Shown: positions 10,501 to 13,500 of the stretch, in pieces
Numbering within the stretch: position 1 is the first letter of the stretch
Layout: every line of letters begins with the position of its first letter
From: Octopus vulgaris
Taxonomy: Eukaryota
NCBI GenBank assembly: GCA_951406725.2
Contig: OX597814.1
Coordinates: 63,550,001-63,614,000 of the forward strand
Reading direction: 5' to 3'
DNA: 64,000 nt
The notes under the pieces: generated by a model
The model's database searches: none
Told to the model about the DNA's origin: nothing
What the model saw: only the letters and a program-made list of their open reading frames with translations
Program-made: the position numbers and the translations under genes

Positions 10501-13500
10501 GACTTTGCCTACAGTGCACAACACTCTAAAACAGGCCGATATAATATGAGAAAATTCGTGAAAAAGGCAGAAGGTAGATGTAAAAAGAGAAAGGTTGAAA
10601 ACACCGGGAAACGAAAAAAAAAGTTATGATAAGACTGAATGGATAGGGGCCTTGAGTCTGTGGTACAGCTGGTCAATCCGGTGAGGGTGGTATTTTCCAA
10701 TTTGCCACCAGGAAATTATCTGTATGTTTACATCTTACTGAATATATCAGCTTTGGAATTCAGCATTCTGGTGGAATTCTTAGCTCTGAAAAGGAACTGT
10801 GATCTTTCAGCTACGCATAGCTTACATTATTTGATCCAGTCTGTCTTTGTTCACTCAATTGTTGATTTAGATTTAGTCGCTCTTATTAGAGCGTATATTA
10901 TTATAAAAGAAAATAATACATAATTACAGTTTTGTATGTATGTATGTATGTATGTATGTATGTATGTATGTATGTATGTATGCATGTATGTATGTATATA
11001 TATATATATATATATATATATATATATATATGTATATATAAATTAGTTGTTATTGCCATATTAATATGGCAGTCTTATAGATATAAGACTAAAGCTGTCG
11101 CTGATTAGCTCCATGAGGCCATCGCCTTAAGCTAGCTATTTGACACACAAACTGTGTCCATTATAACCTTCGAACAAGGGAGGTCAGCCGCTTCACACTG
11201 CCAGTCAGACAGCTACAGACGCGTTTCGGGGTATTTGCCCTTTGTCAATGTAGCTTTAGTCTTATATCTATAAGACTGCCATATTAATATGGCGATAACA
11301 ATTAATTTCCAGTAACGCTGCCGTAATCTCTTTTAGAGAGACTTAGTAATTTTAATATTTCTATTATTGAAAACAAGTGAATGTATTCCACCGAAACTAG
11401 GTAAATAAAACCTTCGAACAGAGACGATCAGTGGCGACACCTGCTGGGTCTGACTACGCTACATTGACAAAGGGCAAATACCCTGAAACGCGTCTGTAGC
11501 TGTCTGACTGGCAGTGTGAAGCGGCTGACCTCCCTTGTTCGAAGGTTATAATGGACATAGTTTGTGTGTCAAATAGCTAGCTTAAGGCGATGGTCTCATG
11601 GAGCTAATCAGCGACAGCTTTAGTCTTATATCTATAAGACTGCCATATTAATATGGTGATAACAATTAATTTCCAGAGAGACTTAGTAATTAGAGAGACT
11701 TAGTAATTTTAATATTTCTATTATATATATATATATATATATATATATATATATATATATACATATGTTGTCTATTGACTATTTATACATGCTAGGCCAC
11801 TGGTGGTGATATTTATAACGAATATTCGCCACGCTATAAATGTTTCTTATGAATATGTTCTTAGCATTCTCGAAGATTCAGCTCGGCATTGTATTTATTG
11901 CTGACTGTAAATGCGCCTGCGCGCGGTATTTTGAAAAATTATAACATATAATGATGGGGCACGTGTTATCTTGTCTCTGAATTATAAGTTAGTTGTTGAG
12001 GCCGGTTACTGACGAGAATTCGCCTGGTGGATAATATTGTTCTGCTAAATTACCTATTAAAGAATGGCAAATAATAATATTATTTTCTAAAGAAATTCGA
12101 AACCATGGTATAACTGTTAAATAACAAGGTAAATTTTTTTCTTTTTCATTTACTTCGAAAGTTGCTATTAAATTGTGATTTTGGCCGTGTTGGCTGCTAT
12201 TTCTAGCATGTAAAAATTACTTGTTAAAGAGTAATTTTCTATTTTGAAATATGAATATGTTGTCTATTGACTATTTATACATGCTGGGCCACTGGTGGTG
12301 ATATTTATAACGAATATTCGCCACCCTATAGATGTTTCTTATGAATATATATATATATATGTGTGTGTGTGTGTGTGTGTGTGTGTGTGAGTGTGTATGT
12401 TTTACTTGTTTCGGTCATTAGGGTGCGCCCATGCTGAAGAACTTTTAGTCTTGAAGAACTTTTAGTCGAATGAATCGTCCCCAGTACTTATATTTTTCTA
12501 AGCCTGGTGTCTATACTATTGGTTGGTTGCCAAACCACTACGGTTCGCGTAAAAACAGTAAAATATAGAACAATGAGAACAAAACAGTAAAAACAAACGA
12601 TGAGAGCTGTTAAGTCAAGATGATGGAAAAATTATTCTGAACGCTGTTTACTGTTTTTACTGCTTTTACATTTTATTGTTATTACTGTTTTGTTCTTACT
12701 GCCCTGTTCTTGTTACCACTTTTTCCCTCCGCAAAAATATCCCAAATTTTATTTAATTTGCTTTGCGGGAAGGACTGTTTCAACGAAGTCGCGTCTTGTC
12801 CTTACATTCGGAAAGCGGAGAAGACGAAACAGGGACAATTGAAGAAGGGGCATATTCCTTGTGTTGTATGTCTTGTATTCTGTTTTTTCCGTTATTTGAA
12901 AAAAAGTTCGATTCTATGTTTTTGTTTTTATGTTTTCGTTTCTCATTGAGTTCAAAGTCCTATACCCATATATATACATATATATATAGGTATGTACATA
13001 TATGTATGTATGTATATATGCATATATGTATATATTACTTATATTATGATATGATGGAACGCCACGCATCCTTTTCCAAGTAAGTTTTATCTATCTATCT
13101 ATCTATCTATCTGTATATATATATTTATTTTTATTTATATATATATATATATATATATATATATATATATATATACAAACACAACGCACACCTACTTACA
13201 CAAGCACACAAAAATATATACGCTCATACACATATAGATATTCTTCTATTATAAATAATCTGTCTCCTCTCCTAATGGCACTTGAATTCGAACATCTAAA
13301 ATACTAGAATGCAGGTGGCATTTATCAGATATTTCCTGCTCTATTTAGTGTCCTTTGCTCCTAAAGTCCAGGCGAAATTATTGACACAGAAGTATAACCA
13401 GTTGTGTTTCTACAGACAATGACGTTCATATTTTGTTTTTCCATTCAAACCATACTGTAAATTCGAAATCTTTTCCTAGGATTGTATACTATTTTATAAT

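Follow-up and report, generated by a model that had tools for sequence, protein, structure and literature searches.

The 492-nt unit that the first-pass annotation singled out in Octopus vulgaris belongs to a repeat of about 500 nt that lacks an ORF, carries a type I hammerhead motif, and is present in many copies. This copy is truncated at its 5' end, and the element is likely a non-autonomous Penelope-like element (PLE) of the non-LTR retrozyme type that would be moved in trans by a PLE RT/GIY-YIG enzyme. Directly observed across the family are the lack of an ORF, flanks of (TA)n, 3' ends fixed at two sites, 5' ends that vary, and both tandem and inverted arms. The original suggestion of a retrozyme or pLTR-type element is supported. 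The repeated ends, which had been taken to point to a circular template, are likely the marks of two fixed sites at which copying began and do not in themselves establish an RNA circle.

The unit and its hammerhead motif

In the window (the whole 64-kb stretch of DNA analyzed), the copy is 586 nt long and reads past the monomer junction. Its end repeat (11763-11856 versus 12255-12348) spans 94 nt with 96.8% identity (3 mismatches) and a period of 492, in agreement with the 94-bp direct terminal redundancy described at the outset. The features of the locus are as follows.

11721..11762, no strand: left (TA)n target tract, common to the neighboring element
11763..12254, + strand: one full noncoding monomer (u1-492) of 492 nt, from sequence comparison
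12003..12116, + strand: type I hammerhead motif, from the sequence, with the predicted cut after 12110
12016..12098, + strand: stem II domain of 83 nt, with a short proximal helix, an internal loop, and a predicted rod of ~22 pairs
12025..12047, + strand: diverged first copy of the stem II hairpin
12047..12063, + strand: spacer resembling the downstream hairpin 12214-12230 (15/17 identical here)
12065..12089, + strand: second copy of the stem II hairpin, corresponding to the single hairpin of short-stem relatives
12102..12109, + strand: palindromic stem III, predicted to be stable as a dimer only (+2.9 versus -11.2 kcal/mol)
12204..12332, + strand: predicted structured domain across the monomer junction, with a helix enclosing P1 and a hairpin before P2; putative RT-binding region
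12255..12348, + strand: 94-nt repeat of the monomer start, i.e., the tail from P1 (about 12251-12258) to P2 (about 12333-12348)
12349..12392, no strand: right (TA)n/(TG)n tract

No stop-free frame of at least 110 codons overlaps the 492-nt unit, which bears out its description as noncoding, and neither the unit nor its copies carry the RT plus GIY-YIG ORF of an autonomous PLE. What it does display is the makeup of a non-LTR retrozyme: the repeat unit is low in GC, has no ORF, and contains a type I hammerhead. It lies, as first reported, in (TA)n right beside a different hammerhead element, the left tract being common to both. That neighbor (11040-11724) is a second, unrelated ORF-free PLE-type element with 215-nt inverted arms (97%), a partial tandem at a period of about 360, and a U3-A8 hammerhead variant at 11464; its forward arm extends ~52 nt beyond the inverted one, which amounts to the same one-sided tail, and another copy of it occurs at locus L274. 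Elsewhere in the window we found a MITE-like unit (9424-10299) that holds CCCTAA-like repeats between inverted ends of 106 nt (91%), an exon-like frame (8743-9078, - strand) matching the xanthine/uracil permease family PF00860, a non-LTR retrotransposon frame with RVT_1 (41216-44599, + strand), and another non-LTR retrotransposon frame (31008-37288, + strand) split by kilobase trinucleotide tracts. The elements may be located in an intron of the PF00860-type permease gene.

The hammerhead observation itself is confirmed, with the core, the three stems, and the type I order all present at 12003-12116. Stem I is formed by 12003-12008 with 12111-12116; the core comprises CUGACGA (12009-12015) and GAAA (12099-12102); the GUA triplet places the predicted cut after 12110, i.e., u348 where u1 is 11763; and the palindromic ACCATGGT at 12102-12109 constitutes stem III. 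The stem II insert, first estimated at ~73 nt, measures 73 nt between 5-bp arms and 83 nt in all. A short stem III that depends on dimer formation is as described for animal hammerheads (PMC4209133). A scan for type I motifs on both strands of the window recovered only two, that of the unit at 12009 and that of the neighbor. Genome-wide, the core and stem III pattern with a long stem II has 61 matches versus 0 for the reversed control; the motif is hence commoner than chance. The Rfam search proposed in the first-pass annotation returned no hammerhead model for the region, either at the gathering score or at E values up to 10. The 151-nt hammerhead region folds no better than shuffles (z -0.25), and its unconstrained minimum free energy structure mispairs the core, the hammerhead-compatible fold being 2.8 kcal/mol higher when stems I and II are forced. 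In families 1 and 2, a conserved internal loop directly follows the proximal helix. Double cleavage, which would set a 492-nt monomer free, is not open to this locus with its single hammerhead; as nothing of the element precedes the first tail either, the copy is probably a dead end.

Copies, ends, and tails across the genome

Searches of the genome (2.8 Gb, 227 contigs) established that the unit belongs to a dispersed family with hundreds of members or more. As a query, it yielded 1,498 first-look candidates, of which the 40 that were scored (self left out) are 82-92% identical to it. The exact core pattern has 44 genomic matches, an exact 24-mer downstream of the core 221, and an exact tail 23-mer common to sister families 318, with 0 matches for the reversed control in each case. 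The family monomer is 492-514 nt, and its copies are dispersed and 5' truncated (the longest among 127 arms measuring 1.6 units); we saw no long arrays. In sister families, complete monomers measure 440-450 nt and likewise lack an ORF; one of these families is 79% identical over aligned columns. Many related contigs also occur in two contig runs labeled as other organisms (their RNA status is a guess), which served only as leads to the sister families and the short-stem variant, both then confirmed in this genome. A distant sister element (L259, 421-1021, - strand) has the same redundant-end layout at a period of about 450, with a hammerhead whose stem II is ~46 nt and two end copies differing by 10-18%. 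At L165 (about 1585-1870), an inverted sister-family arm is joined to a stretch of a third repeat family, which suggests either a nested insertion or a template switch between families with a common enzyme. At present, the family of the 492-nt unit appears to be inactive.

For the end count, the first 100 of the 221 24-mer matches gave 85 loci (10 matches were left out, so that long copies are undersampled, and 5 lay in shared regions); dropping the window, three duplicates, and one segmental copy left 80 loci with 127 arms. The 3' ends fall at P1 (u484-8) in 57 arms, at P2 (u63-110) in 55, and elsewhere in 15, so that 112 of 127 terminate at one of the two sites, 80-100 nt apart, that bound the 94-nt segment. 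The circularly permuted ends that had been suggested as a signature to look for were therefore not what the copies displayed. The 5' ends, in contrast, are spread and variably truncated, with a median arm of 147 nt for P1 and 205 nt for P2 and a maximum of 807 nt. The 3' flank is TA rich in 93 of the 127 arms, indicative of an AT-rich or microsatellite target; 5' truncation is joined by partial tandem copies; and 45 of the 80 loci have an inverted, 5'-truncated arm. All of these are PLE traits, as is the one-sided tail between two fixed end sites, though it is longer than published tails. The redundancy of the window copy, which spans P1 to P2, is not a random overshoot: it is bounded by the same two sites at which 3' ends are fixed in the family. 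This pattern of PLE pseudo-LTR and tail makes the element best read as a non-autonomous PLE of the non-LTR retrozyme type. By eye, the hairpins flanking P1 (L286-L315, around 1385-1565) vary between subfamilies and are self-complementary.

The inverted insertions follow a stricter rule. The 45 head-to-head pairs comprise 36 P1+P2, 0 P1+P1, and 0 P2+P2 combinations, with 9 having an unclassified end; independent site choice would predict about half of the pairs to be mixed, whereas all 36 classifiable ones are. The 52 sister-family loci (23 of which were chosen by tail pattern) contributed 13 P1+P2, 1 P2+P2, and 7 unclassified pairs, for a pooled 49 of 50 classifiable inverted insertions with mixed start sites. 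Paired arms overlap and differ by 6.8% within a locus versus 9.1% between loci of the same length class (p=7e-4), as judged from the 25 of 36 pairs with enough overlap, in all 25 of which the arms were of the same class.

Origin and folding of the long stem II

Short-stem relatives point to how the enlarged domain might have been assembled. The sister family with 79% identity shares the proximal helix and internal loop with the unit and has a single hairpin, in a 42-nt domain; the domain measures 40-46 nt across the sister families and about 46 nt in the far relative L259. One family-1 copy, L336, likewise has a single hairpin, which may be ancestral or a reversion. In some long-stem copies, the stem II hairpin is a near-identical direct repeat. 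Between the hairpins lies a spacer of 18 nt; in 28 of 32 copies, its match is a hairpin located 90-101 nt downstream of the ribozyme, with a mean of 14.4/18 versus 10.8 for shuffles, and in 17 of the 32 the match exceeds all 200 shuffles, the copies being nonindependent. A tree built on the flanks alone (60 rows; the filter missed L336) separates 46 long-stem from 14 short-stem rows by a 99/98 branch, for which the bootstrap had not settled. Together, these sequence comparisons suggest that the long stem II arose by hairpin duplication along with a spacer resembling the downstream hairpin, likely once. RT template jumps, in a one-time event, would account for both the duplication and the captured spacer.

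The pairing of the rod was assessed in 32 gap-free copies out of 54 family-1 motifs. It is paired in 91.8% of cells, with slid controls, taken over the whole structure, giving 28-49%. The only fully compensatory rod pair occurs in 13 of 32 copies and represents one subfamily event; two rod pairs are broken in about half of the copies, and the covariation score of the rod was equaled by 21 of 500 shuffles. The proximal stem II shows a compensatory change in 3 of 32 copies, while one suspected in the small inner helix proved to be a register shift and was rejected. An alternative two-hairpin fold pairs about as well as the rod (91.4% versus 92.1%) and is preferred by 3 of 32 copies, with a mean pair probability of 0.10 versus 0.70 for the rod. 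The likely fold of the long stem II is thus a rod, modestly supported, with the core undisturbed.

Template, mobilization, and competing explanations

The pattern of ends has close precedents. Purified PLE protein nicks both strands of AT-rich DNA, and PLE cDNA starts at two internal RNA sites, the interval between which is the genomic tail; uncut RNA is the main substrate in this assay, and the start site showed no strand difference (PMC11167929). In genomes, PLEs show partial tandems, inverted arms, and a 30- to 40-bp tail often at one end only (PMC8557442). Because its ends match the patterns of PMC11167929 and PMC8557442, the family would by analogy behave like a PLE 3' end repeated on itself. 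It resembles PLE pseudo-LTRs (PMC11167929, PMC8557442) in 5' truncation, partial tandems, the inverted 5' arm, the one-sided tail, the two fixed end sites, and the AT-rich target, and differs in having no RT/GIY-YIG ORF, a tail of 80-100 rather than 30-40 nt, and a near-strict rule of one site per arm. With metazoan non-LTR retrozymes, for which a non-autonomous PLE nature was proposed in PMC7229834 and also in bioRxiv 10.64898/2026.07.22.740005, it shares the ORF-free, AT-rich unit, the type I hammerhead, and proposed PLE mobilization; the curation picture given in PMC8969392 is the same. It departs from them in its 492-514-nt monomer, in dispersed truncated copies rather than arrays, in having no locus found with two tandem intact cores, and in its ~80-nt stem II. 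Like the PLE-associated type I hammerheads of PMC4209133, it combines a conserved core with a short palindromic stem III that implies dimer action, but helix II is 4-8 bp there versus an ~80-nt domain here and 40-46 nt in the sisters. The Naiad "HHR_half_core" elements, listed for cephalopods with core halves 35-50 nt apart, share the (TA)n targeting; unlike the present family, they are autonomous (PMC8557442). In the supplement of that paper, no sequence likeness of published octopus Naiads to the unit was evident, with 0 motif matches, although line breaks there can split motifs. Overall, the window copy emerges as a real, well-supported non-autonomous PLE/retrozyme copy.

A search of the genome for GIY-YIG domains gave 6,136 candidates, of which 150 were scored, many in 781-aa RT+GIY-YIG frames; intact RT+GIY-YIG PLEs are thus present. 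Among 50 partly overlapping GIY-YIG loci from those 150, none showed pLTR likeness to the unit. Two leads toward a partner were rejected: what lies upstream of L165 is a different repeat family and not an ORF, and the tail-profile matches in L259 come from a distant sister element inserted separately. In one abundant intact PLE family (L316-L320), a second long frame of up to 479 codons lies upstream of the 781-codon RT+GIY-YIG frame and overlaps it (e.g., L319, 91-1527 and 1449-3791); descriptions of PLEs give them a single ORF.

On the basis of these precedents, a PLE enzyme would bind the structured region across the monomer junction and nick both strands of a (TA)n tract, and cDNA would begin at P1 and P2. 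If both strands were extended, one from P1 and the other from P2, an inverted insertion with a one-sided tail would result. Synthesis of the window copy would have begun at P2, passed through the hammerhead, and ended after 586 nt at the AT-rich junction, so that the tail is present twice. The published in vitro PLE assay (PMC11167929), in which the start site did not differ between strands, does not account for the strict P1/P2 split. The template would be an uncut tandem RNA or a circle, between which the DNA cannot decide. The predicted cut site is crossed (past u344) in 40 of the 44 arms reaching u352, so that the template appears to be uncut or circular, and cleaved linear RNA seems not to be the usual one. 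A pileup of 5' ends at the cut site was rejected, arm ends at u345-352 not being significantly enriched (4 versus 2.5 expected, p=0.25); an excess is found just downstream, in the U-rich stretch u353-399 (39 versus 22.7 expected, p=0.001). L049, which was left out of the 80-locus count, ends at u348, and L009 and L035, selected by best score or core, end at u347; there may be a minor cleaved-template fraction.

As a refinement of the preferred reading, a strict circular-retrozyme route, in which a dimer transcript is cut at two hammerheads and ligated to an ~500-nt circle for PLE priming at P1/P2, falls somewhat short of an even chance. Besides the arms that pass the cut site, it is favored by arms beyond one monomer (up to 807 nt), by the persistence of the core and dimer stem III across divergent families, and by the demonstration of circles in other animal retrozymes (PMC7229834). 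The divergence of tandem overlaps inside a locus is 6.1% (200/3,260 nt in 25 overlaps, many of them at loci from the best-score search), no more than that of paired inverted arms, and lies below the between-locus median in 21 of 25; two readings of a single molecule would give this, as would dimers that are young and homogeneous. Against it, none of the 61 intact motifs has a second intact core at monomer spacing, the arrangement of two complete hammerheads expected of an active retrozyme, though there are dimers in which the core or a stem is damaged (L017, L073); long arrays are lacking, too, and uncut tandem RNA accounts for the same DNA. The proposal that the element was reverse transcribed about 1.2 times around a template stands insofar as the copy crosses the monomer junction, but not in ascribing the redundancy to overshoot. 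With ends that are fixed rather than permuted, which the first-pass annotation had itself named as evidence against a circular intermediate, the argument for a circle is weakened.

We consider it unlikely that the hammerhead is a relic, with the stem II duplication having stopped cleavage and the family spreading via the RT-binding region alone. The mispaired core of the unconstrained fold, the continued transposition in vitro of hammerhead mutants of a PLE (PMC11167929), and the missing end excess at the cut site would agree with this, but the core is kept across subfamilies (a conservation overstated by partly core-selected copies), stems I and III covary between families, and there are compensatory changes in proximal stem II and the rod. 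That the unit is a solo or truncated pLTR of an autonomous PLE is less probable still: its hammerhead-to-3'-end spacing (~140 nt) resembles that of autonomous PLEs of this genome, of which a small share was screened, yet copies extending upstream of u1 enter the end of the previous monomer or (TA)n, sister families have complete ORF-free monomers, and 30 sister loci, among the matches listed, have no common upstream ORF. That the unit is a repeat of DNA-level origin (MITE, Helitron fragment, or satellite) whose hammerhead-like motif is there by chance is scarcely credible; the want of an Rfam match and a fold no better than shuffles speak for it, but it is already contradicted by the distribution of ends, with their polar truncation, two fixed 3' sites, partial tandems, and inverted arms, and the motif is kept with covarying stems in divergent families.

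The preferred reading, a non-autonomous PLE copied from two fixed sites, belongs to a class already in print, animal retrozymes as non-autonomous PLEs. The variant is apparently undescribed within the literature searched, which listed no paper on the family or on comparable elements with a long stem II; that search covered neither Repbase and Dfam nor most subscription papers, and the supplements of bioRxiv 10.64898/2026.07.22.740005, PMC7229834, and PMC4209133 may hold similar long-stem motifs. Hammerhead censuses based on Rfam or on short-stem descriptors can overlook whole families of this kind. PMC8557442 and PMC11167929 state as open questions the way in which PLEs produce tandem and inverted ends and the function that the hammerhead has for them; the family supplies a countable rule (mixed start sites in nearly all inverted insertions), a small protein-free substrate, and a natural short/long stem II pair with otherwise similar flanks. 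More tentatively, it might represent a superfamily, both large and old, of circular RNAs that have no ORF and parasitize PLE enzymes, with Rfam-invisible hammerheads of 40-85-nt stem II and a strand-specific rule by which one complex primes two nicked strands at two fixed sites of the same RNA. If so, it would offer a 500-nt natural substrate and a genome-scale readout of PLE tails, tandems, and inversions.
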